Positions 32,733 through 48,633 of a stretch of DNA of 64,000 nt are shown here, piece by piece. The translations under genes and the position numbers were made by a program. A model generated the notes under the pieces. It saw only the letters and a list, made by a program, of their open reading frames with translations, did not search any database and was not told the origin of the DNA. Numbering within the stretch: the first letter of the stretch is position 1; the number at the start of each line of letters is the position of its first letter. Source of the stretch: Candidatus Multivorans sp. (GTDB taxonomy: Bacteria; Acidobacteriota; Thermoanaerobaculia; Multivoradales; Multivoraceae); assembly GCA_965219675.1 (NCBI GenBank), contig OZ244786.1:1741914-1805913 (forward strand). Direction: 5' to 3'.

Positions 32733-33421
32733 CTGGCGCCTCCGGCGGCCGGCCGAGCGAAACAAGGGCCGCCGGCGGGTCGTCCCTGCACCGAGAGGAC
32801 GATGGCTTGCCAGCACAGAAACCGTCTGACCGGGGATCGACCCGCGAGTCGACCGGTCTTCCCGAAGACGCCGAACTCGTTCGACGTGCGTCGGCGGGTG
32901 ACGGCAGCGCGTTCGAAGCCCTGGTGCTTCGCTACGAGACGCCGCTCCGCAAGCTGGTCTACGGCTACGTGCTCAACTGGCAGGTCGCCGAGGACGTGGC
33001 GCAGGACGCTTTCCTGCTGGCCTATCGGAAGCTCGGCGACCTGGGAGAGTCGGCCGCGTTCAAGAGCTGGCTCTACCGGATCGCGATCAACCGGGCCCAC
33101 GACGAATTGCGCCGGTCGGCGCGCTGGGGCAGGCGGCTGGACCGGAACGTGGGGGAGGAGGCCCTCGCCGAGTTGCCGGCGGCCGGCGCGGAGTCGGCCG
33201 TCGAGTCGCGGCTGCTCCGGCGCGCCCTCGTGCGCGAACTGGCGCGGTTGCCGAAGAGCCAGCGGACGGCGGTCGTGCTGAAAGACGTGGCGGGAATGAA
33301 GTACGTGGAGATTGCGGAGCTTCTGGGCTGTCCGATCGGCACGGCGCAGATCCGGGTCCATCGGGGCCGGCAGAAGCTCCGCCGCCGGCTCGACGGGCCG
33401 GGCTCCGGCAGGAGGACGTAG
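32729..33421 (+). CDS. RNA polymerase sigma-70 factor, ECF subfamily.
   Basis: Region 2 ...LVYGYVLNWQVAEDVAQDAFLLAYRKLGDL...FKSWLYRIAINRAHDELRR. Region 4 ...QRTAVVLKDVAGMKYVEIAELLGCPIGTAQIRVHRGRQKL. The ATG overlaps the upstream stop. Confidence 0.85.
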   Translation: MTGASGGRPSETRAAGGSSLHREDDGLPAQKPSDRGSTRESTGLPEDAELVRRASAGDGSAFEALVLRYETPLRKLVYGYVLNWQVAEDVAQDAFLLAYRKLGDLGESAAFKSWLYRIAINRAHDELRRSARWGRRLDRNVGEEALAELPAAGAESAVESRLLRRALVRELARLPKSQRTAVVLKDVAGMKYVEIAELLGCPIGTAQIRVHRGRQKLRRRLDGPGSGRRT

Positions 33422-33433
33422 AGGAGGTACGTG

Positions 33434-33856
33434 ATGAGGGAGGAGAAGAGGTCGAGCCGACCGGGGGAGGCCGGAGGCAAGCTCGATGCGCTGTTCGACG
33501 GGTTGCGCGAGGAGTGCGCGGCGCCGCCGCGGGCGCCCGGTTTCCTGGCGGGTTTCAGAGCCCGTCGCGAGGCCTGGCTGGAGCGTGCGGACCAGGCCGC
33601 GCCATGGCGGCTTCTTGCCTTGCGCCTGTCGCCCGTCGGCGCGCTTGCGGCCGGCGCGGCTCTGGTCATGACGCTCGGCGGCGGGGCGCCGGCCATGTCG
33701 CCGGAGACTGTTCCGGAGCAGTCCGTCGCAGCGGAGTACCCTGACCCGTTCGCGGCGGGGCTGGAAGAGGCCGGTGTAGCGACCGCTGCCATGGCGGACG
33801 ATGACGCCGCCTATGAACTCGTGGCCGTGCTCTACGAGCCGATGGGGACACCGTGA
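33434..33856 (+). CDS. Putative anti-sigma factor (single TM segment).
   Basis: Sits immediately downstream of the ECF sigma. The ATG at 33434 is 6 nt after the Shine-Dalgarno GAGGAGG. Hydrophobic segment LLALRLSPVGALAAGAALVMTLGG. Confidence 0.55.
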   Translation: MREEKRSSRPGEAGGKLDALFDGLREECAAPPRAPGFLAGFRARREAWLERADQAAPWRLLALRLSPVGALAAGAALVMTLGGGAPAMSPETVPEQSVAAEYPDPFAAGLEEAGVATAAMADDDAAYELVAVLYEPMGTP

Positions 33857-34443
33857 TGGCCAACGGCTCCATGAAGATGTGGATGGGCCTCGCCCTGGGT
33901 TCGGCACTGGTCGTTGGGGTCTCGGCGGGTCTCGTGGCGGACCGGCTTCTTGCCGAACGGAGCGCCGTCGAAACGGAGCCGAAGGCCTCGTCGCGGACGC
34001 ACGACGATCGGCGGTCGAGGTTTCATTTCGACTGCCGGGGTTGGGAAGAGGAGCAGGCCGAAGGGACCGCGAGCCCGCCCGGGGAAGGGCAGCCCGCCGC
34101 GGCGAACTCGGATTCGTACGTCGAGTACAGGTCGAAGGTGACCCACCGCATGGCGGGCCGCCTGGAGCTGGATGCCGCACAGATCGAGGCGCTGGAGCCC
34201 ATCGTCGGCGAGGCGATGGAGCGTGGGCGGCTCTACTGGACCGGAGCACACGACGAGTTCTGCGCGATGCAGAAGGACTTCCACCGGCAGGTGGGCGCAC
34301 TCCTCCGTCCGGACCAGGCTGTCCGCTTCGACGAGATGAGCGAGGAGTTGTGGAAGCGGGGACGGCGTCATTACGGGAGAGGCCGTGACGGCAGCGGACG
34401 CGACCGCCATCAGGAAGACGGCTCGCCGGAGGCATGCCGATGA
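33853..34443 (+). CDS. Periplasmic Spy/CpxP-like (LTxxQ-motif family) protein.
   Basis: Signal peptide MWMGLALGSALVVGVSAGLVA. Helical region with LELDAAQIEALEPIV. The start overlaps the anti-sigma stop. Confidence 0.55.
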   Translation: MMANGSMKMWMGLALGSALVVGVSAGLVADRLLAERSAVETEPKASSRTHDDRRSRFHFDCRGWEEEQAEGTASPPGEGQPAAANSDSYVEYRSKVTHRMAGRLELDAAQIEALEPIVGEAMERGRLYWTGAHDEFCAMQKDFHRQVGALLRPDQAVRFDEMSEELWKRGRRHYGRGRDGSGRDRHQEDGSPEACR

Positions 34444-37400
34444 CGACCCCGGAGGAAGAGATGGACGAACAGAAGCGCGGTCTGCTCGCGGGGCCCGAGC
34501 AGCAGGAGGAGGCGCTGCAGGAGGCGGCGGCGCACGTCCCCGTCCACCCGCTCATACGCTTCGCCGTCGAGCGGCGCGTGACCATGTTCATGGCGACTCT
34601 GGGCGTGCTGGTGCTCGGCTGGCTGTCGCTCACGCGCCTGCCGCTGGAATTCCTGCCTCTCTTCCAGTCGTCCAACATCTCGGTCCGGGTGCCGTACCAG
34701 TCCTCCTCTCCGGAGGAGATCGCCCGGTCGATCATCTGGCCGCTGGAGGACAGCCTGGGGACGATCAACGGCGTCCGGCTGCTCCGCTCGCGGGCCAGCG
34801 GCAGCTCCGCCTCGGTGGACATCGAGTTCCAGGACGGGACGGACATGGAGCTGGCGGCCGTCGACGTACGCGACCGGATCGACCGGGTGCGCAACGAGCT
34901 GCCGAGCGACGTGGAGCAGATCTACGTCCGCCGTTTCGAGAGTACGGACATCCCGGTTCTCCGCAGCAGTCTCAGCGCGCCCTGGACCCAGGATGAGCTG
35001 AACGACTTCGTCGAGGATGTGCTCCTGCCCCGGATCGAGCGGCTGGAGGGCGTGGCGCAGGCGGAAGTCTGGGGCATGCTGAGCCGGGAGCTGCGGATCG
35101 AACTGCTGCCCGACCGCATGGCCGCCCACGGCGTGGATGTCCGCGAGTTGCGGCAGGTTCTGCAGAGCAACCACGTGAACGTCTCGGGCGGCTATCTGCG
35201 CGAAGGCAGCCGCCGCCTGCTGGTTCGCACCATCGGCGAGTTCCAGACTCCGGACGAGATCCGCGATCTGCCGATTCGTGGCGACGGCCTCCGTGTGGGC
35301 GATGTCGCCGACGTGAAGTTCGGCTACCCCGACAAGTACGAGTACAGCTTCCTGAACGGGTCGGAGGCGATCAGCCTGAGCGTGAACAAGGCCTCCGACG
35401 CGAATCTCCTGGACGTCGTCGGCCGGGTCAAGGCCGAACTCCAGGCCATCCAGCAGACGCCCGAGGGCGCGGGCCTCGAGTTCCGCCACTTCCACGACAC
35501 CTCGGTCGACGTGCGTCAGGGCCTGACCGAGCTCGGCCGCAGCGGGCTGATCGGCGGCGGTCTGGCGATCGTCTTCATGTTCCTCTTCCTGCGCAAGTTC
35601 CGGACCACGCTGCTGGTGGCTCTGGCGGTGCCGTTATCGCTGGTCATGACCTTCGTGATGATGTACCTCGGCCGCCAGGCGGGCGTCACCGAGATCACGC
35701 TGAACGTGATGAGTCTGATGGGTTTGATGCTCGCGATCGGGATGCTGCTCGACAACTCCATCGTCGTCATCGAGTCGATCTTCCGGCACCGCCAGGATCT
35801 CGGCGCCAGTGCGAAGTACGCCGCCCTGGGCGGCGCCAGCGACGTGGCAATGCCGATCATCTGCTCGACGATGACCACGATGTGCGTGTTCGTGCCGCTC
35901 ATCTTCTTCGGCAGCGGCGGCGGCGGACCGGGCAGCTTCTCGCGCTTCATGGGGGACATCGGCACGACGGTCTGCGTGGTCATGCTCGGTTCCCTGGTCA
36001 TCTCCCTGACCGTGGTGCCGATGATCGCGGCGATCCTGCTCAGGTCGGAGAGCAAGCGCCGGTTCAAGCTGCTCGACCGGATCAGCGAGCTCTACGGGGC
36101 GACTCTGGCCTTCACCCTGCGCCACCGCTTCATCTTCACCATGGTGATCGGCGCGCTGCTCTACGGTTCCTGGGAGCTGTACAACAGCATCGAACGGAGC
36201 TTCAACCAACCGTCCCAGGGCCGGGCGCTGACCATCTTCGTCGAGACGCCGCGGCAGATGGGAATGGACGACCGCCTGGCTCTCTATGACGAGGTCTACG
36301 CGTTGCTCGACTCCAGGCGGGACGAGTGGGAGATCGCCGACATCGCCCACCAGGTGCGCCGGGGCGGCGGCCGCAGCCGGGGGTACGGCGGCGGCAACCG
36401 TTTCGAGGTCTATCTGAAGCCCGAGGAGGTTTCGGAGCTCTCCACGGACGAGGTCACGGAACTCGTCCGGGAGGCAATGCCGCAGAAGGTCGGCGTGCTC
36501 TTCAAGCTCGCCCGGACCGAGTTCGGGCCTCCGGGTTCCGGAAGCTCCGGGATGGACGTGGAACTGATCGGCGACGACATGGGCACCCTCGAACTCCTCG
36601 TGCCGCGGATCACGGACCGGCTGCGTCAGCTCCCCATGGTGGGCGACATCGACAACTCGTTCGAGAGCGGCGACGACGAGATCCGGGTTTCCGTGAACCG
36701 TGAGCGGGCACTCCAGGGCGGCCTGTCGAGCCAGGCCGTGGCGATGACGGTGAACGGCGCGCTCTCGAGCCGCTCGCTGGCGTACTTCAAGACGGCGGAG
36801 CGCGAAATCGGCATGGTCATGCAGTACCGGGAGGAGGACCGGGAGACGCTCGATCAGTTGAAGAAGATGCCGGTCCTCGTGTCGGACCCGAACGAGGAGT
36901 CGGGAGCGGTCACCCTGCCGATCTCCAGCCTCGCCTCGTTCCAGCTTCAGAGCGGACCGTCCGAGGTCGAGCGGGAGAATCGCCGTTCCAAGGTGGAGAT
37001 CGACATCACGGCCGCGGGCGGCACGCCAGGCTTCATGCTGCGGCGGCCGGTCCAGATGGCGCTCGCGGACGTTCCGCTGCCGCCAGGCTACGAGTGGTCT
37101 CTCGGCAGGAGGTTCATGGAGGCCGAGGAGGACGCGTCGCGCGCCGTCCTGGCGATGATCCTGGCTGTCGTGCTGATCTACATGATCATGGCGGCCCTGT
37201 TCGAGGACTTCCTCCAGCCGTTCACGATCATGCTGTCGATTCCCTTCGCCTTCATCGGCGTCGGCCTGATCATGTACCTGGCGGGCCAGCCGCGGTCCGA
37301 CTCGTCGAACATGGGACTCCTCATCCTGGCCGGGATCGTGGTGAACAACGCGATCGTCCTGATCGACCACATCAACCGGTTGCGGCGCGAAGGCATCGCC

Positions 37401-37709
37401 CGCGACAAGGCGATCGTCCTCGGCGGCAAGAATCGCCTGCGGCCCATCCTGATGACGGCCGTGACGACGATTCTCGGCCTGTCGCCGATGGTCGCTCCCT
37501 TCTTCCTGCCCCAGGTGTTCGGCCAGCCCGAGGGCCGTGCCGCCTTCTGGGCGCCGGTGGGCCTCGTCATCCTGGGCGGGCTCACGACATCCACATTTCT
37601 GACCCTGCTTGTGATTCCGACGGTCTATTCCCTGGTCGACGACGTGAAGCTCTTCGTCCAGCGGGTTGTGCGGGCGGTCACGACCGTTCCGCGGAGAAAG
37701 ATGGCATGA
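34434..37709 (+). CDS. Efflux RND transporter permease subunit (AcrB/CzcA family).
   Basis: 1091-aa ORF. Canonical N-terminus IRFAVERRVTMFMATLGVLVLG preceded by a ~40-aa acidic extension. 12-TM RND topology. Confidence 0.9.
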   Translation: MPMTTPEEEMDEQKRGLLAGPEQQEEALQEAAAHVPVHPLIRFAVERRVTMFMATLGVLVLGWLSLTRLPLEFLPLFQSSNISVRVPYQSSSPEEIARSIIWPLEDSLGTINGVRLLRSRASGSSASVDIEFQDGTDMELAAVDVRDRIDRVRNELPSDVEQIYVRRFESTDIPVLRSSLSAPWTQDELNDFVEDVLLPRIERLEGVAQAEVWGMLSRELRIELLPDRMAAHGVDVRELRQVLQSNHVNVSGGYLREGSRRLLVRTIGEFQTPDEIRDLPIRGDGLRVGDVADVKFGYPDKYEYSFLNGSEAISLSVNKASDANLLDVVGRVKAELQAIQQTPEGAGLEFRHFHDTSVDVRQGLTELGRSGLIGGGLAIVFMFLFLRKFRTTLLVALAVPLSLVMTFVMMYLGRQAGVTEITLNVMSLMGLMLAIGMLLDNSIVVIESIFRHRQDLGASAKYAALGGASDVAMPIICSTMTTMCVFVPLIFFGSGGGGPGSFSRFMGDIGTTVCVVMLGSLVISLTVVPMIAAILLRSESKRRFKLLDRISELYGATLAFTLRHRFIFTMVIGALLYGSWELYNSIERSFNQPSQGRALTIFVETPRQMGMDDRLALYDEVYALLDSRRDEWEIADIAHQVRRGGGRSRGYGGGNRFEVYLKPEEVSELSTDEVTELVREAMPQKVGVLFKLARTEFGPPGSGSSGMDVELIGDDMGTLELLVPRITDRLRQLPMVGDIDNSFESGDDEIRVSVNRERALQGGLSSQAVAMTVNGALSSRSLAYFKTAEREIGMVMQYREEDRETLDQLKKMPVLVSDPNEESGAVTLPISSLASFQLQSGPSEVERENRRSKVEIDITAAGGTPGFMLRRPVQMALADVPLPPGYEWSLGRRFMEAEEDASRAVLAMILAVVLIYMIMAALFEDFLQPFTIMLSIPFAFIGVGLIMYLAGQPRSDSSNMGLLILAGIVVNNAIVLIDHINRLRREGIARDKAIVLGGKNRLRPILMTAVTTILGLSPMVAPFFLPQVFGQPEGRAAFWAPVGLVILGGLTTSTFLTLLVIPTVYSLVDDVKLFVQRVVRAVTTVPRRKMA

Positions 37710-39250
37710 AACTCAAGAGACGATTGGGCAAGGCGCGGTCGGCCGGCGCCCTCCTGTTGATGGCGGCCGTGGCCGCCGCGGGCATCGGCTGCGGGCAGTC
37801 CAACGCCGAAGCGGGCGGAGAGAACCCCCGCGCCGGCCGGGGCGGACCCGGCGGCGGTCCCGGGGGCCGGGGCGGCGGACCGCCGGGCGGCTTCCCTGGG
37901 GGCTTCCCGGGCTTCGGAGGCCCTGCGGCCACTGCCGTGATTCCGGTCGCGGTGACGAGCGTCATCCGACGCGACATCGCGGACTACCTGGAGACGAACG
38001 GTTCGCTCGAGGCCGAGAACGAGGTCGACATCGTGGCCCGCACGACCGGTCCGATCGTCGAACTGAACGTGGAGGAAGGCGACTTCGTGCGGGAAGGCCA
38101 GGTGCTGGCACGCATCGACGCCGCGGAGATCGAGGCGCAGTTGGGCATTGCCCGGGTCAACCTGGCCGAGGCGGAACTGTCCTGGAAGCGGGCGCAGTCG
38201 TCCTATCGCGAGGAAGTGATCAGCCAGGAGGCCTACGACCTCGCCAGGTCGACCTTCGAGAGCGCTGCCGCCCAGATCGTCGGCACCGAGATCCTGCTCG
38301 ACTACACCGTGATCCGGGCGCCGTTCGACGGCTTGATCATCGAGCGCGTGATCAAGAACGCGGAGCATGTTCCGACCAACGCGAGGCTGTTCCGGATCTC
38401 CGACTTCGATCCGCTGCTCTGTCCGATCCAGCTTCCGGAGAAGGACCTGCCGCGCCTCAAGCTGGACCAGCCCGCCCACCTGACGGTCGAGGCCTACCCC
38501 GGGGCCCGCTTCCCGGCGCGGGTGCTGCGGATCAGCCCGGTCGTCGACGCGGCGACCGGTACGGTCAAGGTCACGCTCGAAGTGCAGGCCCAGGGCCGCC
38601 TGCGGCCCGGAATGTTCGCCAGCGTGTTCGTCGAGACGGACGTTCACGAGAACGCGATCGTCGTGCCGAAGCAGGCCCTGGTACTCGAAAGCACGTCCGA
38701 CACCGTGTACGTGGCGGTGGAGGACGGACAGGGCGGCACGGTCGCCCAGCGCCGCGAACTCGAGCTCGGCTACGAGGAGAGCGACAGTCTGGAAGTGCTC
38801 TCCGGCCTCCGCGAGGGCGAGGATGTCGTGATCATCGGGCAGGACGGCCTCTCGGACCAGACGCCGATTTCGGTCGATGAGCGGGAGGGGCCGGCCGCGG
38901 CGCCCACGATGTTCACTTCCATGCCGGCGGCCGGCGCCGAAGGCGCGGCCGGTCGGTCGCCTGCCGCGGCTGGTGGCGCGGATGGCGCCGCGCAGGCTGC
39001 GCCGGCGCGGCCCGGGCCGGGCGGCCCCGGAGGCTCTCGCGGCGGACCTCCCGGCGGCTTCGATCCCAGCCAGATGACGCCCGAACGGATGGAGATGATC
39101 CGGGCCCGCATGAAGGAGCAGGGCATGAGCGACGAGCAGATCGACCAGATGATGGAACGCATCCGGAGCGGCCAGGGACCGCCGGGAAGGCCGCCTGGTG
39201 CTCCGGCCGGCAGGCAGCAGGGCGGACCGCCCGGACGACCGCAGGGTTGA
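37706..39250 (+). CDS. Efflux RND transporter periplasmic adaptor subunit (MFP/HlyD family) with Gly/Pro-rich low-complexity N- and C-terminal tails.
   Basis: The ATG at 37706 overlaps the RND stop (ATGA). Lipoprotein-like MKLKRRLG...AAAGIGCGQ. Biotinyl/lipoyl-like and beta-barrel segments (VIRAPFDGLIIERV). Tails GGPGGGPGGRGGGPPGGFPGGFPGFGG and GPGGPGGSRGGPPGGFDP...GPPGRPPGAPAG. Confidence 0.85.
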   Translation: MKLKRRLGKARSAGALLLMAAVAAAGIGCGQSNAEAGGENPRAGRGGPGGGPGGRGGGPPGGFPGGFPGFGGPAATAVIPVAVTSVIRRDIADYLETNGSLEAENEVDIVARTTGPIVELNVEEGDFVREGQVLARIDAAEIEAQLGIARVNLAEAELSWKRAQSSYREEVISQEAYDLARSTFESAAAQIVGTEILLDYTVIRAPFDGLIIERVIKNAEHVPTNARLFRISDFDPLLCPIQLPEKDLPRLKLDQPAHLTVEAYPGARFPARVLRISPVVDAATGTVKVTLEVQAQGRLRPGMFASVFVETDVHENAIVVPKQALVLESTSDTVYVAVEDGQGGTVAQRRELELGYEESDSLEVLSGLREGEDVVIIGQDGLSDQTPISVDEREGPAAAPTMFTSMPAAGAEGAAGRSPAAAGGADGAAQAAPARPGPGGPGGSRGGPPGGFDPSQMTPERMEMIRARMKEQGMSDEQIDQMMERIRSGQGPPGRPPGAPAGRQQGGPPGRPQG

Positions 39251-39284
39251 CCGGGCCCCGGGGCGCCTGACCAGGTAACGCGAC

Positions 39285-42200
39285 ATGCGGGTTGTTTCCT
39301 TCGCCACGCGGCGACCGGTCACCGTGTTCATCTTCGCCCTCGCGGCGGTGGTCTTCGGCGGCGTCGCCTTCCGGGACCTTGCGGTCGACCTGCTGCCGGA
39401 CATCACCTATCCGTCGCTGACCGTCCAGACGGGGTACGAAGGCGCCGCGCCGGTCGAGATGGAGACCCTGATCACGCGGCCGGTCGAGGACGCGGTAGGG
39501 GTGGTCAACGGGGTCAACCGGGTCATCTCGAGTTCCCGGGCGGACATCAGCGAGGTCACGCTGGAGTTCTCCTGGGGCACGAACATGGACTTCGCCTCGC
39601 TCGACGTGCGCGAGCGTCTGGATCAGGTGCGGTTGCCGATCGCGGCCGACAGGCCGGTCCTGCTGCGCTACGACCCGTCGCTCGACCCGATCCTGCGGAT
39701 GGGGCTATCCGGCGGCGGCGACGACCTGATCGCTCTGCGCCTCCTGGCCGAGGAGGATCTGAAGCGGAAGCTCGAGCGCCTGGAGGGCGTGGCGGCCGTC
39801 GTCGTGAGTGGCGGTCTCGAGGAGGAGATCCAGGTCGAGATCGACGAGCGGCGCCTGACCAGTCTGGGCCTCACGATGAACCAGGTGATGAACCGTCTGG
39901 CGCAGGAGAACGTGAATCTCACGGGCGGCCGGCTGCGCGACGGCCAGACCGACTACCTCGTGCGAACGATCAACGAACTGCTGCGGCCGGAAGAGATGCG
40001 GGAGATCGTGATCGATCGTTCCCAGGGGGCGATCGTGCGTCTCGAGGACATCGCCCGCGTCTACCAGGGCGCCCGGGAACGCGAGGTGATCACGCGGATC
40101 GACGGCCGGGAGGCCGTGGAGATCGCGGTCTACAAGGAGGGCGGCACGAACACGGTGACCGTCGCATCCGCCGTTCTCGACCGGGTGGAAGGACTCGTGG
40201 AGGAGATCAGACAGATCGATCCCCAGCTCGAATTGAGCGTCCTCACCGACCAGTCGCGCTACATCCGCGACTCCGTGTCGGCGGTGATCGAGACCGCCCT
40301 GATCGGCGGCTCGCTGGCGATCGTCGTCCTGTTCCTCTTCCTGCGCAGCGCGCCGAAGACGCTGATCATCGGGATCTCGATCCCGGTCTCCGTCGTCGCG
40401 ACCTTCTTCCTGATGTATGTCGCCGGCGTGTCGCTCAACATCATGTCGCTCGGCGGGATCACGCTCGGCATCGGTCTCCTGCTCGACAACTCGATCGTCG
40501 TCCTGGAGGCGATCCAGCGCCGTCGCGACCAGGGTCTGGGCGTCGTCGAGGCGGCCCGTGCCGGCGCTTCCGAAGTCGGCCGGGCGGTGATCGCCAGCAC
40601 GATCACGACCGTCTGCGTGTTCGTGCCGATCGTCTTCGTCGAGGGCGTCGCCGGTCAGATGTTCGGCGACCAGGCGTTGACCGTGACCTTCTCCCTGCTG
40701 GTGTCGCTCGGGGTCGCGCTGACCGTGATCCCGATGCTCGCGTCACGGAGGTTCTTCGCCGCCGGGGCGGAGGTCGAGGCCGTCGAGAGCGCGGGCCGCT
40801 CCAACCCGGTGACCCGAGCCATCTCGGGCTTGTTCAGCGCGTTGGGAGTCGGGATCGCCCTGGTCGTGAAGCATGTCTTCCGCGGCGTTGCCGCGATCAT
40901 GTCCGTGCTGCTCCGGCCGGTGCTCGCCGCCTTCGACGCGCTGCTCCAGGGCATCACGGCGGTCTACGCCCGCGTCCTTCGCGGGGCCCTGCGCCACCCC
41001 GTCCTGGTCGTCCTGGTGGCCGTGGCGCTGCTCGCGGGGAGCGTCCAGCTCGTGGGCTCGCTCGGCAGCGAACTCGTGCCGGAACTGATTCAGGGCGAGT
41101 TCTACGTCGACGCCGAACTGGCGCCCGGGAGCCGGCTGGAGGTCACGGATCGCCGGCTCGCGACGATCGACAAGCGCGTGCGCGAGTTTCCCGAGGAGTT
41201 CGGCGTGCAGTCGGTCTACACGGTGGTCGGTACCTCGAACGAGCAGGGAGGCGCGGCCGGCGAGAAACGGGAGAACATCGGCCAGGTCAACGTGCGGATG
41301 GAACCGCCGATCGATGCCGAGCGCGAGGAGCTGGTGATGAGCCGGATCCGGTCCCTGATCGATGCGGAGAACGCGTCCTTCGACCGCCAGGCGCCGCCGG
41401 TCGCCGGCGCGGCGTCTGCTCCGGTCGGAGCCGCCGGCGCCGGATCGCTGCTCGGCGACGATTCCCTGAAGTACCGCTTCGGCCGTCCGACCTACTTCAG
41501 TTTCCGGAGTCCGGTCGAGGTGCAGATCCGTGGCCACAACCTGGCGTTGCTGGAAGTGCTTGCCGATCAGGTCGCGGCCCGGATGCGCGAGGTCGAGGGG
41601 CTGGTCGACGTCAAGTCATCGACCGAAGGCGGCAACCCGGAACTTCAGATCATCTTCGACCGGGAGCGGCTGTCCACCTTGAACTACACGGTCGCGGAGC
41701 TTGGAGCCGTCATCCGGTCCAAGGTGCAGGGCGACATCGCGACGGACATCGTGCGCGAGGATCGGAACATCGAGGTCCGGATGCGGGCGGACGAGGGCTT
41801 CCGCGACTCGGTCCGCGATCTCCGCAACCTGAACGTCCGCCAGAGCGGTGCTGTGCCACTGCCTCTCTCGGCGGTGGCGGAAGTGATCGAGACGGAAGGG
41901 CCGGCCGAGATTCGCCGCAGCGACGGCGGCCGGGTCGCGCTGATCGAGGCGAACATCGTCGGCCGCGATCTGGGCAGCGTCTCCGACGACATTCAGGCCA
42001 TCCTGGACTCGACCCGGTTCCCGGTCGGCTTCGACTACTCGGTCGGCGGTCAGCGCCAGGAAATGGAGCGCTCCTTCGACAGCATGCGACTCGCGATCCT
42101 GCTCGCCGTGTTCATGGTCTACCTGGTCATGGCCTCCCAGTTCGAATCGCTGCTGCACCCATTCGTCATCCTGTTCGCCGTGCCGTTCTCGATCATCGGC

Positions 42201-42605
42201 GCGGTCGGCATCCTCTACCTGACCCGGACTCCGGTCAGCATCGTCGTCCTGATCGGCGGCATCCTGCTGGCCGGCATCGTGGTGAACAACGCGATCATCC
42301 TGATCGACTACACGAACCGTCTGCGCCGGGCCGGCAAGGCGAAGGTGGACGCCCTGCGCGAGGCCTGCCTGGTGCGGCTGCGGCCGATCCTGATGACGAC
42401 CTCGACCACGGTCCTGGGCCTCCTGCCGATGGCCCTGGGCCTGGGCGAAGGAGCGGAGCTCAGGACTCCCATGGCCCTGACCGTGGTCGGCGGACTGCTC
42501 ACTTCGACGCTCCTGACCCTGATCGTGATCCCGGCGCTCTATCTCCTGCTGGACATCCACAAGCACGACGCCGACCCCGAGACGGTCGCCGAACCGGCCG
42601 GGTAG
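39285..42605 (+). CDS. Second efflux RND transporter permease subunit.
   Basis: 1106-aa ORF starting MRVVSFATRRPVTVFIFALAAVVFGGVAF, with RND TM/periplasmic organisation. Confidence 0.9.
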   Translation: MRVVSFATRRPVTVFIFALAAVVFGGVAFRDLAVDLLPDITYPSLTVQTGYEGAAPVEMETLITRPVEDAVGVVNGVNRVISSSRADISEVTLEFSWGTNMDFASLDVRERLDQVRLPIAADRPVLLRYDPSLDPILRMGLSGGGDDLIALRLLAEEDLKRKLERLEGVAAVVVSGGLEEEIQVEIDERRLTSLGLTMNQVMNRLAQENVNLTGGRLRDGQTDYLVRTINELLRPEEMREIVIDRSQGAIVRLEDIARVYQGAREREVITRIDGREAVEIAVYKEGGTNTVTVASAVLDRVEGLVEEIRQIDPQLELSVLTDQSRYIRDSVSAVIETALIGGSLAIVVLFLFLRSAPKTLIIGISIPVSVVATFFLMYVAGVSLNIMSLGGITLGIGLLLDNSIVVLEAIQRRRDQGLGVVEAARAGASEVGRAVIASTITTVCVFVPIVFVEGVAGQMFGDQALTVTFSLLVSLGVALTVIPMLASRRFFAAGAEVEAVESAGRSNPVTRAISGLFSALGVGIALVVKHVFRGVAAIMSVLLRPVLAAFDALLQGITAVYARVLRGALRHPVLVVLVAVALLAGSVQLVGSLGSELVPELIQGEFYVDAELAPGSRLEVTDRRLATIDKRVREFPEEFGVQSVYTVVGTSNEQGGAAGEKRENIGQVNVRMEPPIDAEREELVMSRIRSLIDAENASFDRQAPPVAGAASAPVGAAGAGSLLGDDSLKYRFGRPTYFSFRSPVEVQIRGHNLALLEVLADQVAARMREVEGLVDVKSSTEGGNPELQIIFDRERLSTLNYTVAELGAVIRSKVQGDIATDIVREDRNIEVRMRADEGFRDSVRDLRNLNVRQSGAVPLPLSAVAEVIETEGPAEIRRSDGGRVALIEANIVGRDLGSVSDDIQAILDSTRFPVGFDYSVGGQRQEMERSFDSMRLAILLAVFMVYLVMASQFESLLHPFVILFAVPFSIIGAVGILYLTRTPVSIVVLIGGILLAGIVVNNAIILIDYTNRLRRAGKAKVDALREACLVRLRPILMTTSTTVLGLLPMALGLGEGAELRTPMALTVVGGLLTSTLLTLIVIPALYLLLDIHKHDADPETVAEPAG

Positions 42606-42691
42606 CACGAGACCCAACCAGAGGATCTCGAAGAGCTCCGCTTGCTGGCAGCCTCGCGCCCGGCGTCCCGCTGTAGCATGTCGGTCCACAG

Positions 42692-43774
42692 ATGTACAAG
42701 GCTCCGTGGCGTGTGAAAGCGACCTGGCTCTGCTGGTCCGGAGGGAAGGAGTCGGCATGGGCCCTTCGTCGGCTCCGGGCAGAGCCCACCTTCGACGTTC
42801 GCGGCTTGATCGCGCTCGTGAACGAGAAGAACGGTCGGGTGCTCCTTCACGGGATACGGCACACGCTGTTGGAGCATCAGGCGGCGGCAGTCGGATTGCC
42901 GTTGCGGCTGATTCCGCTGGATTGGACGGCGCCGTCAAGGGACAATGACGCTGTGATCGGGAAGGTGTTCGGCGAGTTGCACGGTGAGGGAGCGGGCTGC
43001 GTCGCCTTCGGCAACCTCTACTCGCCGGCCGACCGGCAGCGACGCCTGGGTACTACGGCAGGCACTGGCCTCGAACCGATCTTCCCGCTCTGGGACCTGA
43101 GCCCGTTGGATCACGTCTCAGCCCTGCTGGAAGCCGGTGTGACGGCCTGGGTGTGTTCGGTGGACACCGGAGTCCTTCCGGCGGGCCGCATCGGTAGCCG
43201 CTTGGTCGGTAGCTGTTTGGATTCGGAGTTTCTGGCCAACTTGCCGGAGGATGTCGACCCCAGCGGCGAGAACGGCGAGTACCATACCTTCGTGGAGTGG
43301 GCACCGGGGTGGGATCACTCCGTGTCCGTCAAACCGCTCCGGTCGATCGAGGTCTACGACTTCGCGTTCGCGGAGTTCGAGTTCGTGCCTGAGCACGCGA
43401 ACGCGAGAGCCGCCCGGCCCGGCGAGCTGGTTGCGGAAGCACGGGCGCTGGCGCCCTCGGGCCCTGACGAGCCGAGACCCGACCCGTTCCGCTACTTCGA
43501 GAGACTGGCGAGGGTGCGCAGCCATGTGGACGCCAACCTCGCCGACCAACTGAACACGGAATCCGTCGCACGAGTGGCCGCAATGTCGGCGGCTGGCTTC
43601 TCACGGTTCTTCCATCGGTACGTCGGACTGTCGTTCGGGACCTGGTTGGCCGAACGCCGCATTGAACACGCATGCCGGATGCTACGTGAGAGTAACTCCA
43701 ACGTCGCTGCCTACACCGAGCACAGGCCACGAAACCCGGCCTACCCACTCGCATTTCAAAGGAGGCCTCTGTAG
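42692..43774 (+). CDS. Fusion protein: an N-terminal PP-loop ATP pyrophosphatase domain (Dph6/MJ0570-like, DUF71) plus a C-terminal AraC-type HTH that is partial or degenerate.
   Basis: PP-loop CWSGGKESAWAL (an SGGKDS variant). C-terminal ...AAGFSRFFHRYVGLSFGTWLAERRIEHACRMLRESN, an AraC family HTH signature. Confidence 0.7.
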   Translation: MYKAPWRVKATWLCWSGGKESAWALRRLRAEPTFDVRGLIALVNEKNGRVLLHGIRHTLLEHQAAAVGLPLRLIPLDWTAPSRDNDAVIGKVFGELHGEGAGCVAFGNLYSPADRQRRLGTTAGTGLEPIFPLWDLSPLDHVSALLEAGVTAWVCSVDTGVLPAGRIGSRLVGSCLDSEFLANLPEDVDPSGENGEYHTFVEWAPGWDHSVSVKPLRSIEVYDFAFAEFEFVPEHANARAARPGELVAEARALAPSGPDEPRPDPFRYFERLARVRSHVDANLADQLNTESVARVAAMSAAGFSRFFHRYVGLSFGTWLAERRIEHACRMLRESNSNVAAYTEHRPRNPAYPLAFQRRPL

Positions 43775-43844
43775 TCAGCCATCTTCGCTTCACGGTGCGT
43801 TCGCTGACGTCAAGCACGAGAGTGCGGCGAGTGTCCCTGTTTGT

Positions 43845-43875
43845 CCGGTTCCGGCAAGAACCTGGCCGGAATCGG
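43845..43875. repeat. Imperfect inverted repeat: 11-bp arms ccggttccggc / gccggaatcgg (one mismatch) with a 9-nt loop. It lies in the intergenic region upstream of the Cys-rich protein gene.
   Basis: Read directly from the sequence. No downstream T-run, so it is more likely an operator or RNA structure than an intrinsic terminator. Confidence 0.3.
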
Positions 43876-43952
43876 TCGAATGTCGTCCGGTAATCGGCGG
43901 CGTTCTTTCCTAGAGTTGTTGCGAAGCTACCAACACATCATTGCTACTCTGA

Positions 43953-43960
43953 AAGGAGGC
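43953..43960 (+). promoter_or_regulatory. Shine-Dalgarno sequence AAAGGAGG for the Cys-rich protein gene.
   Basis: 5-nt spacing to the ATG at 43966. Confidence 0.6.
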
Positions 43961-43965
43961 AGGAG

Positions 43966-44415
43966 ATGACGAAGAAGAGAAGGTGGAACGAGACGACCGT
44001 CGGCCTCTCGTTGCTGCTGACTGTGGCGTTCGTCGCGACGCCAACTCTCGCGCAGGCCGAGCGGGACCGGGACGAGCTCGTTGAGCCTGCCATCGAGACG
44101 CCGCTCGATGCGTTCGACGAGCTTCCTGCCGCAGTCTCGTACGCCGAAGGGCCTGTGCCTGACCTGGCATTCGGGACCCCGAAGTGTCGCGCCGTTACGG
44201 CCGCGCTTTCCTCGGGCAACTCCGACGAGTGCCTCGAGTGTCAACGGTCCTGCATGGCGGAGTGGCGGGAGTGCCGCCGCGGCTGTGCGAGTGCGGATCC
44301 CGATGACTGGATCCCGTGTCATGAGGCATGCGCCGATGCGCTCGTTTGGTGCCAAAGCTCGGGCTGCAGTGGGGCATGCGGCTCGTCTTCCACTTCTTCA
44401 GGATCCACTAGGTGA
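43966..44415 (+). CDS. Small secreted cysteine-rich protein (149 aa).
   Basis: Strong Shine-Dalgarno AAAGGAGG 5 nt upstream. Signal peptide VGLSLLLTVAFVATPTLAQA. 10 Cys in the C-terminal 70 aa (CLECQRSCMAEWRECRRGCA...CHEACADALVWCQSSGCSGACG). Confidence 0.6.
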   Translation: MTKKRRWNETTVGLSLLLTVAFVATPTLAQAERDRDELVEPAIETPLDAFDELPAAVSYAEGPVPDLAFGTPKCRAVTAALSSGNSDECLECQRSCMAEWRECRRGCASADPDDWIPCHEACADALVWCQSSGCSGACGSSSTSSGSTR

Positions 44416-46217
44416 TCTTGTCCGGAGCGATGCGGCTCACGGCTGCGTCGTGGGTCCCGCTGCTGGGCTTTGGCCTGGCAGCGGGTCTCGCCGCCCAGTC
44501 GAAGCAGACTTTCTACGACGCGGTCGACGTCGAAGTAGTGGAGATCGATGTCGTGGTCGTGGATCGAAAGGGAGTGCCGGTCCTTGGCCTCAAGAAGGAC
44601 GACTTCAATCTCTACGTGGACGGCGAGGCCATCGAGATCAGCAACTTTCTCTCCTGGTCCGTGGTTACGGGCGGATCCCGATCGGTTCGTTCCGGTCGTT
44701 CTCCCGGCGGCGGCGCCGAATTGCCGGGGGCGGCAAGGGCCACCAGCGCGGTAGGTGGCGTGCCGCTCCTGATCGCAATCTACCTGGATGAGCTCAGCCT
44801 TCATCCGGCACGCCGCGACCGTGTGCTGGACCGTCTTCAAGCCGCGGCCGAGCCCTGGCACGGGCTGGGCGCGCAGTTCGTTCTCGCGGTCTTTGATGGT
44901 CGACTCGACATCGCGGTCGGCCCGACAAGGGATCTTTCGGCGGTTCTTCGAGCGGCCTCCCTTCGTGCCGCGGCGGCTCCAGCCAGGGCCTACGAGTTGG
45001 CTCGGGCGCGACGGCGCGCGTTCACCGAACTTGCCCTGAACGCCAGGGCTTCCTCCGGGACGGCGGGAGAGGACGCAGGGGACGGTGGAATCGCCCGCTG
45101 CGAACGGGAGAAGTGGTTCCATCTCCTTTCCATCGCTCGGAACCACGCGTACGAAACGGAAACTCGCAGCGCCGTGGCGATGGACGGACTGGCTGACCTG
45201 ATCAGTTCGCTGTCCGGCGTGGCTGGCAAGAAGGCAGTTGTGTACGTCAGCGATGGCCTGCCCCAGCGGCCCGGTGTGGACATCTTCACGTACCTCGTCG
45301 AACAGCTTTGCCCGGACGCTACGAATCTCCACCCGGAGGCCTACGCGGAGATGCTCCAGTTTGACGACGCGAGCGACGTGAATCGTATCGCGGCCCACGC
45401 AAATGCCAACCGGGTCACCTTCTACCCATTGGATGCCATGGGCCTGGATACGGGGCTCCATCTGGATCCGTCCTTCCGGAGCCTCGCCGAGGCGCCATCC
45501 GCCCGCAACGACGAGATCGCCCGGATGAACCGGCAGAACGGGCTGAACATGCTCGCGTCCGAGACGGGTGGAAAGGCGCTGCTCAACTCGAATGACATCC
45601 GTCCCCTGCTGGCCGAAGTTGCAGTCCAGCTTGAGGCTTCGTACTCGCTGGGTTTTTCTCCGGAGCCCTCTGAGCGTGCAAGAGTGCGCCAGGTCCGCGT
45701 GGAGCTGGCGCCACCGGCGGCCAAGCGCCGCAGAATCCAGTATCGGCGTTCCTATCGCGTCAAGTCGCTGGAGGAGCGTCTGGCCGAGCGCCTGTTCAGC
45801 GTCGCCCATTTGGAGGCGTCAGGGTGGAACCCGCTTCAGGTGGAAGTCGGCTTCGGCCCTACGGAGGGCGGTGGAGGGCAGGGAGTGAAGCGGGATAGCG
45901 GGATCGTGGTCGAGGTGGCGGTGCCCATCTCCGCTCTTCCATTCCTCACGAGTCGGGCCGATACGCAGGGCGAACTCCGGGTCTGGATGCTCGCCGTTGA
46001 TTCTGGCAAGGGCGTCCGCACGCGGATACGCCAGAAGTCCCTGACCGTTGGCGGAGACGGTGGAGTGGCGCCCAGAAACGGCTCGTTTCGGTTCGAGGTC
46101 GAAATGGACCTGCCTGAAGGCGTCTGGCAGGTCGCGGTAGGCGTCCGCGACGAACTCACTGGCGTCACCTCGCTCATGAGCGAGTCGCTGCCGATTCCCA
46201 TGATATCCATGCCCTGA
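44412..46217 (+). CDS. VWFA-related Acidobacterial-type domain protein (vWA fold), secreted.
   Basis: Signal peptide, then FYDAVDVEVVEIDVVVVDRKGVPVLGLKKDDFNLYVDGEAIEISNF. vWA-like LLIAIYLDELS...VVYVSDGLP. The GTG start overlaps the upstream stop. An alternative ATG lies at 44430. Confidence 0.8.
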   Translation: MILSGAMRLTAASWVPLLGFGLAAGLAAQSKQTFYDAVDVEVVEIDVVVVDRKGVPVLGLKKDDFNLYVDGEAIEISNFLSWSVVTGGSRSVRSGRSPGGGAELPGAARATSAVGGVPLLIAIYLDELSLHPARRDRVLDRLQAAAEPWHGLGAQFVLAVFDGRLDIAVGPTRDLSAVLRAASLRAAAAPARAYELARARRRAFTELALNARASSGTAGEDAGDGGIARCEREKWFHLLSIARNHAYETETRSAVAMDGLADLISSLSGVAGKKAVVYVSDGLPQRPGVDIFTYLVEQLCPDATNLHPEAYAEMLQFDDASDVNRIAAHANANRVTFYPLDAMGLDTGLHLDPSFRSLAEAPSARNDEIARMNRQNGLNMLASETGGKALLNSNDIRPLLAEVAVQLEASYSLGFSPEPSERARVRQVRVELAPPAAKRRRIQYRRSYRVKSLEERLAERLFSVAHLEASGWNPLQVEVGFGPTEGGGGQGVKRDSGIVVEVAVPISALPFLTSRADTQGELRVWMLAVDSGKGVRTRIRQKSLTVGGDGGVAPRNGSFRFEVEMDLPEGVWQVAVGVRDELTGVTSLMSESLPIPMISMP

Positions 46218-46302: not shown

Positions 46303-48633
46303 CTACGGAAACGCTGATTCGAGTTCCGGGGCGGTCCAGGGGTCGATGCGGTCGCCGGTGCGTTCGCGGACGCCGGTGACGAGTTCGGGCGAAACCGGAT
46401 CGGCCGCGTTTCCCCAGCTTCGGCGGACGTAGGTGAGCAGAGCGGCGATGGCCGTGTCGGGGAGGCGGGGATCGGCGGCGAAGCCGGGCATGAGGTCGTC
46501 CCAGACTTCGCCGTGGACTTCGATCGGCCCCTCGATTCCCTGGAGGACGAGGGCGACCAGGCGTTCGGGGGAGCCGAGGACCCAGGAGGAGTCCACCAGG
46601 CTTGGGCCGAGACCTTCCAGGCCCTGTCCGTCGTTGCTGTGACAGGAGTTGCACGCGCGGTAGTGACGCCGGCCGCGGTTGAACCGGGCCGCTTCCTCGG
46701 CGGTCATCGCGGGAGCCGGTTCCACGGTCGGGACCTCCGCTGCCTCGGTCGGGCCGGCGCCATCGAGCTTCGCGGCCAGAGCCACCTGGCGGTGGAAGGG
46801 ATCGTCCGGGCGCGCCGCGACCCGTTCGGCCAGGGCGGTCCTGGCCCAGGTCGCTTCGGGGGCCATGCCGCCGAGGGTCAGCAGGGCCTGGGTGCGTACC
46901 TGGGCCGACGAGGAGTCGAGCAGCTCGGCGATGACTGCCTGGCCGGCGGCGCTCCCGGCGAGTTCGTCCTCGCCGGTGCGTAGGCCGTGGACGACCAGCC
47001 AGGGGTCGGCGTCGCGGAGAGCGGCCAGAGTCGTCGTCTCATCCAGTTCGCCGCGGCCGTGAAGGGTCCACAGGGCGTGGATGCGGGCCAGCGGATCGGC
47101 GCCTGAACGGGCAAGTTCGCGCAGTGCACCCCGGCCTGCGTCGTCGAGTTCGTTCTCGACCAGCAGACGCTGGGCGGTGTCCCGGCGCCAGCCGTTCGGG
47201 TGGGACAGGGAGGCGATTCGGTCGGATGCGGTATCGAGCTCTTGCGGGTCGCGGCGGACCGGAGCCGGGTCATCGGCGTCGCCTTCCCAGACGATCCGGT
47301 AGATGCGCCCCATGCCGATCGGGCGGTCGAGCCCGTGCTCGAGGATGTACTCGCGCAGATACGTCGTCACGTAGCGCACGTGCTGGAGGATTCCGCGATA
47401 CATGTCGATCACGTACAGGGCGCCGTCCGGGCCGACCTTCGCATCGACCGGGCGAAAGCGCTCGTCGGTCGAGGCCAGGAAGTCGCGTTCGACCCAGTCC
47501 GGATCGTCGTAGCGACGGTGCTCGGCGATCAGCGTGGGCACGCCGTCCCGTACTGGTCCCGGCGCGAGATCGAAGTGAGCAACGACGTTCCCGGCCGGCT
47601 CCGGCACGAAGACGTCACCGCGGAACGTGCTTGGGAACTGATCGCCCCGGTAAACCGTGAGGCCGCTGACCGAGGTGGTCACGGCAAGCCGGCCGTCCCC
47701 GCGCAGCATGCTGCCGACGTAGCCGCGGTTGATGCCCGGATTCACCCGGATCGAGTAGACCGTCTCGTCATGGACGAGGCGCTCGCTGGCGCCGATGCCC
47801 CCGCCCCGGGTCTGGTGCTCCGGGTCCGCGAGGGCGTAGTCCGCGGGAATCAGGTCGGCGAAGAGATAACGCGAGTTCGTGTTGTAGTAGAGGCGACCGA
47901 CGTCATCCTGGGCGATGCCCCACTGGCCGCGGAACAGGGTCGGGTCGACTTCGACGGAAACGCCATCCACACCGCGCCGCAACCGGAAGCGTCGGTCGGA
48001 CTTCGCGTTGTAGATCCAGTTGTCGAGCGCCCACAGCAGCCCGTTCTCCGTGTGCTCGAGCAGGTCGGGGTCCGGATCGCCGTAGTCGAGCAGCCGCTCC
48101 CGGCTCGCGCAACGGGGCAGGCCGCCGGCTTCCGCTTCACTCCGGCACAGCCACAGGTTCGGCGGTTCGCCGATCAGAACGCCGCCCGAGACGGCGGCGA
48201 TCGCGCGCGGGCTGACCAGGCCGTCCAGGTAAACCGCGCGCCGGTCCATCTCGCCGTCCAAGTCCGTGTCCTCGAGCACGACGACCCGGCCGACCGGCTC
48301 CTGCTCGCCGATGCCGTCCACGTTCGGCATGAAGCCGCGCATCTCGACGACGTAGAGGAGCCCTCGTTCGTCCCAGGCCATCGCCACCGGGTCTTCGACA
48401 AGCGGTTCCGCGGCCACGAGTTCAACGCGGAAACCCGGGGCCACGCGGAAACTCGCCATCGCCTCGGCCGGCGGGAGCGGCGGCGCCGGCGGCACCTCGA
48501 TGCCGCGCCAGACCTGTTCCATGACATGGCCTTCCCGATCGCCTCGCTGAGCTGTCGCCGGGCTTCCGGCTACGGCCAGGGTCAGGCTGGCAAGAAGGGT
48601 GGCGGCGGTTCGGGTTGCGGGTCGCAGGGGCAT
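46303..48633 (-). CDS. PVC-type heme-binding CxxCH protein: a glucose/sorbosone-dehydrogenase-like propeller, HEAT-like repeats and a C-terminal cytochrome c domain.
   Basis: Signal peptide ATLLASLTLAVAGSPATAQ. Heme motif CNSCHSNDGQG near the C-terminus. 776 aa. Confidence 0.8.
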   Translation of the reverse strand: MPLRPATRTAATLLASLTLAVAGSPATAQRGDREGHVMEQVWRGIEVPPAPPLPPAEAMASFRVAPGFRVELVAAEPLVEDPVAMAWDERGLLYVVEMRGFMPNVDGIGEQEPVGRVVVLEDTDLDGEMDRRAVYLDGLVSPRAIAAVSGGVLIGEPPNLWLCRSEAEAGGLPRCASRERLLDYGDPDPDLLEHTENGLLWALDNWIYNAKSDRRFRLRRGVDGVSVEVDPTLFRGQWGIAQDDVGRLYYNTNSRYLFADLIPADYALADPEHQTRGGGIGASERLVHDETVYSIRVNPGINRGYVGSMLRGDGRLAVTTSVSGLTVYRGDQFPSTFRGDVFVPEPAGNVVAHFDLAPGPVRDGVPTLIAEHRRYDDPDWVERDFLASTDERFRPVDAKVGPDGALYVIDMYRGILQHVRYVTTYLREYILEHGLDRPIGMGRIYRIVWEGDADDPAPVRRDPQELDTASDRIASLSHPNGWRRDTAQRLLVENELDDAGRGALRELARSGADPLARIHALWTLHGRGELDETTTLAALRDADPWLVVHGLRTGEDELAGSAAGQAVIAELLDSSSAQVRTQALLTLGGMAPEATWARTALAERVAARPDDPFHRQVALAAKLDGAGPTEAAEVPTVEPAPAMTAEEAARFNRGRRHYRACNSCHSNDGQGLEGLGPSLVDSSWVLGSPERLVALVLQGIEGPIEVHGEVWDDLMPGFAADPRLPDTAIAALLTYVRRSWGNAADPVSPELVTGVRERTGDRIDPWTAPELESAFP

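Follow-up and report, generated by a model that had tools for sequence, protein, structure and literature searches.

Can an ATP-using PP-loop domain act as the sensor of an AraC-type regulator, or is a gene that joins the two an artefact of fusion or a regulator in decay? The question is raised by a 360-aa open reading frame (ORF) at 42692..43774 (+) in a 64,000-nt stretch of a Candidatus Multivorans sp. genome (Acidobacteriota, Thermoanaerobaculia; contig OZ244786.1 of assembly GCA_965219675.1), hereafter the window. Its product begins with a PP-loop domain of the DUF71 type, continues through a disordered linker and ends with an AraC DNA-binding domain that is truncated. An earlier note, made from the letters alone, had offered all three answers: an unusual one-component regulator, a gene-fusion artefact or a decayed regulator. 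AraC-family regulators are largely defined by what their N-terminal domain senses, and these sensors, enzyme-derived or other, are notoriously diverse: AraC itself has a cupin, AdpA and FtrA have DJ-1/PfpI-like domains, and Rob has a GyrI-like domain. Judged by its sequences and by the literature searched, the fusion family is an undescribed sub-family of AraC/XylS one-component regulators with a new, enzyme-derived (PP-loop) sensor, while the copy in the window is a paralogue that is most likely being lost.

The joining of a PP-loop DUF71 domain to an AraC-type domain was borne out by domain scans, profile matching and a structural model. The window protein is 100% identical to P0001, a protein encoded on a 4,507,104-bp contig. 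Its N-type ATP pyrophosphatase (PF01902/DUF71) domain spans aa 14-226 (42731..43369, +), where Pfam places PF01902 Diphthami_syn_2, formerly DUF71/ATP_bind_4 (E=2.2e-21; 76.8 bits against a cutoff of 23.2), and a profile of the family matched PF0828 (3rjz), an N-type ATP pyrophosphatase, with E=4.5e-23. In an AlphaFold (AF2) model of the window protein, built with 18 homologues and having a mean predicted local distance difference test score (pLDDT) of 80.5, this domain is confidently folded (pLDDT mostly 85-97), and it superposes in Foldseek on the two-domain fold of PH1257 (2d13) and PF0828 (3rk1) with target-normalised TM-scores of 0.82-0.84 and E about 1e-12. A linker follows at about aa 232-262 (43385..43477, +), variable in length across alignments and predicted to be disordered (pLDDT <50 at aa 236-262). 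What survives of the AraC domain, aa 265-339 (43484..43707, +), consists of helix 1, the first helix-turn-helix unit (HTH1) and the long linker helix. DNA alignments and helices modelled at aa 270-343 support this assignment, as does the Pfam match to PF12833 HTH_18 at aa 293-339 (E=7.4e-9), which covers only profile positions 2-48 of 80. The several NCBIfam matches to AraC-family DNA-binding domains all stop at aa ~340, the Pfam scan of the window protein gave no match to PF00165, and the tail of the model, aa 345-360, is disordered. Positions 266-367 of the family profile match the DNA-binding domains of AraC, AdpA, SoxS, MarA, RamA and Rob. The family shares with AraC/XylS activators the ~100-aa two-HTH C-terminal domain, the N-terminal effector domain and the flexible linker between them. 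It differs in its effector, a PP-loop N-type ATP pyrophosphatase; in the literature searched we found no AraC regulator of this kind and no description of a PP-loop/AraC fusion.

What kind of PP-loop domain is this? De Crecy-Lagard et al. (2012; PMC3541065) divide DUF71 into Dph6, marked by EGGE/DxE188, and a bacterial 'cluster 2', marked by ENGE[F/Y]H188. They give the conserved ATP-phosphate contacts of PF0828 as S12, G13, G14, K15, D16, H48 and T189, and note that diphthamide is absent from bacteria (PMC3541065). Profile alignment of the window protein to 3rjz places the equivalents at S16, G17, G18, K19, E20 (a D-to-E change), S21, H53 and T199. The PP-loop that the earlier note had described as SGGK(D/E)S is there as SGGKES at aa 16-21 (42737..42754, +); in the profile alignment and motif census it corresponds to S12-S17 of PF0828 with this one conservative change. 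The second motif, GENGEYHT (aa 192-199; 43265..43288, +), reads directly as the ENGE[FY]H signature of cluster 2 (E193, N194, G195, E196, Y197, H198) followed by the conserved threonine. On the strength of the retained contacts and the E193-N-G-E-Y-H198 signature, we assign the domain to DUF71 cluster 2, with a conservative D-to-E change, and not to Dph6. It shares with Dph6, PF0828, PH1257 and MJ0570 the fold (TM 0.82-0.84) and the ATP-binding PP-loop, but His198 stands in place of the catalytic E188 of Dph6, the TIGR03679 score is 57.6 against a cutoff of 197.3, and the NCBIfam match to Dph6_archaeal is sub-threshold. The initial description of the domain as diphthine-ammonia ligase-like thus stands for family and fold and falls for a Dph6-like function, with ENGE[FY]H replacing EGGE/DxE (PMC3541065). 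Across the fused family, a motif census found PP-loop variants SGGK[DE]S, TGGKDS and [ST]SGKDS and a second motif that always ends in E[FY]HT, most commonly GGNDEFHT. Given the conserved residues, the ATP site looks preserved, an argument for continued nucleotide binding and perhaps for adenylation as well.

Cluster 2 is also known as 'DUF71-B12', having been tied to B12 salvage through gene clustering, a predicted role (PMC3541065). Stand-alone DUF71-B12 proteins (TIGR00290) resemble the fused forms at about 40% identity over 220 aa and have the same PP-loop, the histidine and the ENGE[FY]H-T signature. The fused forms differ in making up a separate similarity group, in carrying a DNA-binding domain, in having GGNDEFHT as commonest motif and in their surroundings. 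In the window and the four further loci scanned (L002, L004, L005 and L006), no B12 genes were found near the fusion genes, whose neighbours are RND, VWA and secreted proteins without an assigned role, and Rfam at its gathering threshold detected no cobalamin riboswitch. A B12 link for the fused forms was dropped, since no riboswitch was detected near them in these loci and just one of seven stand-alone loci has one. In L016, a Hyphomonadaceae metagenome-assembled genome (MAG), a stand-alone DUF71 gene lies 5 kb downstream, on the same strand, of a cobalamin riboswitch at 4833-5052 (+; 118 bits), an arrangement consistent with the 2012 'DUF71-B12' prediction (PMC3541065).

Is the fusion itself genuine? 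A search of 5.8 billion proteins, clustered at 90% identity, recovered about 95 clusters that share the one-polypeptide architecture at 349-380 aa, with PF01902, PF12833 and PF00165 in their precomputed Pfam annotation; the named members are Acidobacteriota MAGs, mostly Thermoanaerobaculia. Four members that we re-scanned (P0003, P0016, P0023 and P0083) each encode a complete HTH_18 (1-80) together with HTH_AraC. The two-HTH, ~100-aa C-terminal domain of AraC proteins is accordingly present in the family and incomplete in the window copy, and the idea of an unusual one-component regulator appears to hold at the level of the family. In none of the relatives are the two halves encoded by separate adjoining genes, and this refutes the reading of a frameshift fusion artefact. 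Among species-representative genomes, the full-length fusion was recovered only from Thermoanaerobaculia (including Ca. Multivorans), one Vicinamibacteraceae MAG and unclassified Acidobacteria (L004-L014); many phyla encode stand-alone TIGR00290 proteins of 220 aa. The N-domains of 64 full-length fusions are 44-97% identical to one another and reach no more than 47% identity with stand-alone forms, a distribution consistent with a single fusion event followed by duplication. Genomes encode two to three paralogues. Two of them, P0023 (56% identical to the window protein) and P0083 (45%), are encoded with intact AraC domains on the same 4,507,104-bp contig as the window protein; exact-sequence look-ups of P0001, P0023 and P0083 matched no record. 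In an alignment of 18 paralogues, the recognition helices of HTH1 and HTH2 are largely conserved, with the consensus AAMSPxGFSRFFR ... GFxSERTFRRAF. Public annotations are generic, either 'helix-turn-helix domain-containing protein' or, at JGI, 'diphthamide synthase/AraC-like DNA-binding protein'.

How, then, did the window copy come to lack part of its AraC domain? Its closest relative, P0002 (90% identical), is encoded on scaffold L001, where the same genes lie upstream in the order RND, membrane-fusion protein (MFP) and RND. A second scaffold, L087 (GCA_022822945.1), was found through a homologue of the downstream Cys-rich protein and is collinear with the window across the MFP, RND, fusion, Cys-rich, VWA and DUF7133 genes. 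L001 and L087 are the same in sequence across the fusion gene and so represent one population, and we treat them as one orthologue. The window and this orthologue are about 96% identical at the nucleotide level until 43707. There, 134 nt of the orthologue, which encode ...ARVGETAGFQNERSFRRTFREKTGCSPSQYRKAFLEEGGVSRDDTA of HTH2, are replaced by a 59-nt filler (43708..43766, +), a net change of -75 nt (25 codons) that keeps the frame, and identity of about 96% is back at CTCTGTAGTCAGCC, including the TAG stop codon common to both (43772..43774, +). The last 21 residues of the window protein (AYTEHRPRNPAYPLAFQRRPL) are almost all encoded by unrelated DNA and are disordered in the model. Homology breaks off at aa 339 (nt 43707), where the first helix of HTH2 begins, so HTH1 and the linker helix are kept and HTH2 is wholly lost. 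The domain had been thought to stop after about 1.5 HTH units; it is indeed truncated, with the whole of the second unit absent.

The filler resembled the 134 nt that it replaced no more than chance would predict, in either orientation, and matched nothing in the remainder of L087 or of the window. An origin as a small inversion or local copy was ruled out, there being no significant forward or reverse-complement match. Also rejected was a frameshifted relic of HTH2 3' of the breakpoint (frame 2, 'CSQPSSLHGAF'; frame 3, 'RVRRVSLFVRFRQE'): in a tblastn search of 95 family C-termini against the tail, with shuffles, it scored no better than 87% of shuffles.

The sensor half of the gene is altered as well. 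A 15-nt tandem duplication (TCGGTAGCCGCTTGG / TCGGTAGCTGTTTGG; 43191..43220, +) inserts 5 aa into the sensor domain, where local pLDDT is about 60; it is unique to the window copy, appearing neither in L001/L087 nor in any family member. The fusion gene differs between window and orthologue by 24 non-synonymous and 16 synonymous changes, giving a ratio of non-synonymous to synonymous rates (dN/dS) of 0.50, against 0.05 and 0.08 for the two flanking RND genes. The orthologue, for its part, has a 1-nt deletion at the equivalent of 42962 that frameshifts the N-domain, and because of this its gene call starts internally. Together, the loss of HTH2, the duplication, the relaxed dN/dS and the frameshift in the orthologue suggest that the paralogue in the window is most likely being lost, and for this copy the suggestion of a decayed regulator was the right one. 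The synonymous rate (dS) of the fusion gene (42692-43707) is 0.066, compared with 0.18-0.28 in the RND genes (34434-42605), at similar overall nucleotide identity; identity in sliding windows is 85-98%, without a clear boundary. A recent recombination tract is a possible source of the low dS, as are differing mutational or codon constraints. Elsewhere in the family, P0067, P0089, P0093, P0061 and P0095 carry frameshifts in the AraC domain or have lost internal parts of the PP-loop domain, which may reflect either frequent decay of paralogues or metagenome assembly errors.

If the intact members are regulators, where would they bind? By comparing the intergenic regions before recurrent neighbours, we identified a candidate operator in which the core GTCCG[G/C]T recurs in three direct repeats at a period of exactly 21 bp. 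In the window it occupies 43843..43905 (+; GTCCGGT.. / GGCCGGA.. / GTCCGGT..), upstream of the Cys-rich/VWA operon, with repeats starting at 43843, 43864 (GGCCGGA) and 43885. A -10-like hexamer, TAGAGT (43911..43916, +), lies 26 nt past the start of the third repeat; after it come a GGAGG ribosome-binding site and, at 43966, the start codon (ATG) of the Cys-rich gene. In a relaxed search (core G[GT]CCG[GCA][TA], spacing 20-22 nt), triples adjoin fusion genes in seven independent loci, namely the window (with its orthologue L087), L005, L007, L008, L084, L085 and L086, and their core is GKCCGGW, or G[G/T]CCGG[T/A]. A repeat pair is found in L010 and degenerate versions in L006 and L014. All of these sites are intergenic and within 2 kb of the fusion gene. 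By comparison, 69 stand-alone control loci (1.10 Mb, with 2958 single core matches) contain no triple, and the window has one occurrence of the exact pattern where 0.02 would be expected. A TAGNNT hexamer (TAGAGT, TAGTGT, TAGCAT or TAGCCT), which was no part of the search pattern, follows the start of the third repeat by 26-27 nt in all eight triples, and at this fixed offset the third repeat occupies the -35 region of what is plausibly a promoter.

The position of the element relative to the fusion gene varies. In L005 and L007 it precedes an operon made up of a small membrane-protein ORF and then the fusion gene, and in L010 and L086 it occupies the divergent intergenic region beside the fusion gene. 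The signal came from periodicity; a k-mer sharing statistic alone was not significant, and a consensus scan for sigma-70 promoters and terminators over 42400-44600 found nothing. A metagenome scan for the exact triple gave at least 120 matches, mostly generic perfect 21-nt tandem repeats, with none beside a fusion gene among the matches listed. The small ORF between the element and the fusion gene in L005 (9744-9917) and L007 (~1288-1509) is conserved: its products, 57-73 aa long, share the motif QRDLRR...WSRWGDPLLAGALLAL.AWAIV and have one predicted transmembrane helix. It is absent at the window locus and may encode a co-transcribed partner of the regulator.

The reading that we favour, with moderate confidence, is that intact members of the family are AraC-type activators that work at these repeats with a PP-loop sensor, and that the window paralogue no longer works and is decaying. 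Intact members would be class-II activators binding the 21-bp repeats. A 21-bp unit is the expected footprint of one two-HTH AraC domain, and direct repeats spaced by 21 bp and overlapping -35 are the arrangement of the araI1-I2 and XylS sites. The candidate sites have this same spacing and position, so that each unit would fit one two-HTH domain; they differ in having three repeats rather than two. The PP-loop domain would be the effector module, and the activity of the regulators would be set by what this domain binds, ATP and a small molecule that is probably carboxylate-bearing. The window protein, which differs from AraC/XylS activators in having no HTH2, should not occupy a full site. 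If anything still acts at the intact operator upstream of the Cys-rich/VWA operon, it would then probably be the two intact paralogues of the same genome. With recognition helices largely conserved among paralogues, operators could be shared, and the loss of one copy could be tolerable.

Several observations pull the other way. The ORF is open, its frame and native stop are kept and its sensor motifs are intact, so some function may persist. The dN/dS of 0.5 is based on 40 substitutions and is below 1, and the frameshift in the orthologue may be an assembly error, with L001 and L087 not independent of each other. The repeats were found in the same loci in which they were later counted, making that a post hoc test, if one with independent control loci. 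In L002, L004, L009 and L011-L013 no clear repeats were seen. Finally, the link between the fusion protein and the repeats comes from comparative genomics, and another factor could bind them.

Among the alternatives, the one that survives best concerns the window copy itself: the truncated protein may have taken on a new role, either as a stand-alone ligand-binding or adenylating protein or as a DNA-binding-deficient anti-activator that titrates the ligand or co-oligomerises with the intact paralogues. In its favour, the frame is kept across the replacement and the native stop is used, the PP-loop, H53 and GENGEYHT are intact in an N-domain modelled with high confidence, dN/dS is 0.5 and not 1, and public records annotate a normal 360-aa product. 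An in-frame outcome, however, has a one-in-three chance of arising, the 5-aa duplication unique to this copy lies within the sensor domain, the neighbouring genes are under 6-10 times stronger constraint, the other half of the gene is disabled in the sister lineage, and there is no sign that the family oligomerises through its N-domain. We consider a new role unlikely, if worth keeping in mind, and decay the better account of this copy.

A second alternative, slightly less probable still, concerns how intact members sense. BirA (the biotin protein ligase and bio repressor) and NadR each combine an adenylating enzyme and an HTH in one polypeptide, and the fusion family similarly couples an ATP-using, adenylate-forming type of domain to a DNA-binding domain. 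By analogy, the PP-loop domain would adenylate a carboxylate, and the enzyme-bound acyl-adenylate, or its turnover, would be the signal instead of reversible ligand binding. The reported ATP-phosphate contacts and the C-terminal motif of the domain are conserved in fused and stand-alone forms alike, which would be unexpected for a purely vestigial sensor. Yet many sensor domains that derive from enzymes retain the binding residues although they turn over no substrate, G stands in place of the E of ENGE in GGNDEFHT, the most frequent fused variant, and the literature found reports no biochemistry for any bacterial DUF71 protein. The likeness to BirA also has its limits: BirA has a class II aminoacyl-tRNA synthetase-like fold and an N-terminal winged HTH, compared with a PP-loop HUP domain and a C-terminal AraC domain here, where activity is predicted from sequence. 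The more specific proposal that a bound carboxylate adenylate licenses the AraC domain at promoters with three GKCCGGW repeats, intact members being BirA-like enzyme-regulators, is correspondingly more doubtful.

It is similarly doubtful that the 21-bp repeats belong to a different regulator, such as a response regulator or another type of AraC paralogue, and lie near fusion genes through shared regulation of the VWA and secreted-protein genes. Direct repeats of 10.5/21-bp period are also typical of OmpR/PhoB-type regulators, the gene downstream of the element differs between loci, and several fusion loci have no element. The fusion gene is nonetheless the only gene common to all repeat-bearing loci; moreover, the element precedes the fusion gene's own operon in L005 and L007, it sits in the divergent region beside the fusion gene in L010 and L086, and the 21-bp direct-repeat spacing matches AraC and XylS sites. 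Very improbable is an assembly or consensus error at the 3' end of an intact gene: the source genome is probably metagenome-assembled, as related records indicate, but a clean 134-to-59-nt replacement between flanks about 96% identical is unlike a homopolymer or collapse error, and the flanks are collinear with three other assemblies.

The genes around the fusion gene differ in how widely they are kept. Directly upstream is an RND transporter of the AcrB family (39285..42605, +; Pfam E=2.7e-238), syntenic with L001/L087; this upstream RND context is common only to the window and its close orthologue. The transporter closes an operon-like block at 32729-42605 (+) that comprises an ECF-type sigma factor (32729-33421), two small ORFs, an RND gene (34434-37709), an MFP gene (~37718-39250) and the RND gene at 39285-42605. 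The block is collinear with L001/L087 and about 94% identical to them, and the fusion gene starts 86 nt further on, on the same strand. Downstream, a small secreted Cys-rich protein of 149 aa with a GGAGG ribosome-binding site (43966..44415, +) is syntenic in L087-L089. Among the fetched loci its gene occurs in the window lineage only (window, L087-L089), and a search of 1.84 billion representatives found homologues in only five clusters, the best 78% identical. It overlaps the next gene by 4 nt (GTGA), is translationally coupled to it and is the probable first gene of the regulated operon.

That next gene encodes a 601-aa TIGR03436 'acidobact_VWFA' protein (44412..46217, +; NCBIfam E=3e-39). 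A TIGR03436 VWA gene of ~600 aa adjoins the fusion gene in the window, L005, L006, L008, L014, L084 and L085, and a family of ~800-aa proteins is found near it in L005, L006, L010, L014 and L084. A 345-aa protein and an SPM-domain protein are neighbours in L002/L003 and L086, with only the 345-aa gene, partial, in L004. All these recurrent neighbours belong to secreted, Acidobacteria-typical families. Three tandem VWA-family genes adjoin the fusion gene in L005 (13390-18672, -) and L084 has fragmented copies, which suggests rapid turnover of these putative target genes. The window has a second TIGR03436-type VWA paralogue at 56403-58001 (-), 34% identical to that at 44412-46217 and with no repeat element detected beside it. 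A 776-aa protein with DUF7133 and a C-terminal cytochrome c domain (46303-48633, -) keeps its place 3' of the VWA gene in L087-L089.

For the window itself the result is the more ordinary one, a single paralogue caught during loss. The putative targets of the family also await characterisation: they are TIGR03436 VWA proteins and further secreted families typical of Acidobacteria. The candidate operator at 43843-43905 and the genes adjacent to it provide defined material for testing. Bacterial DUF71 proteins have gained no experimentally supported function since the B12-salvage prediction of 2012, and a regulator built on this domain offers promoter activation as a read-out for its ligand. If intact members do work in the manner of BirA, their co-activator would reveal the substrate class of the bacterial DUF71 proteins.

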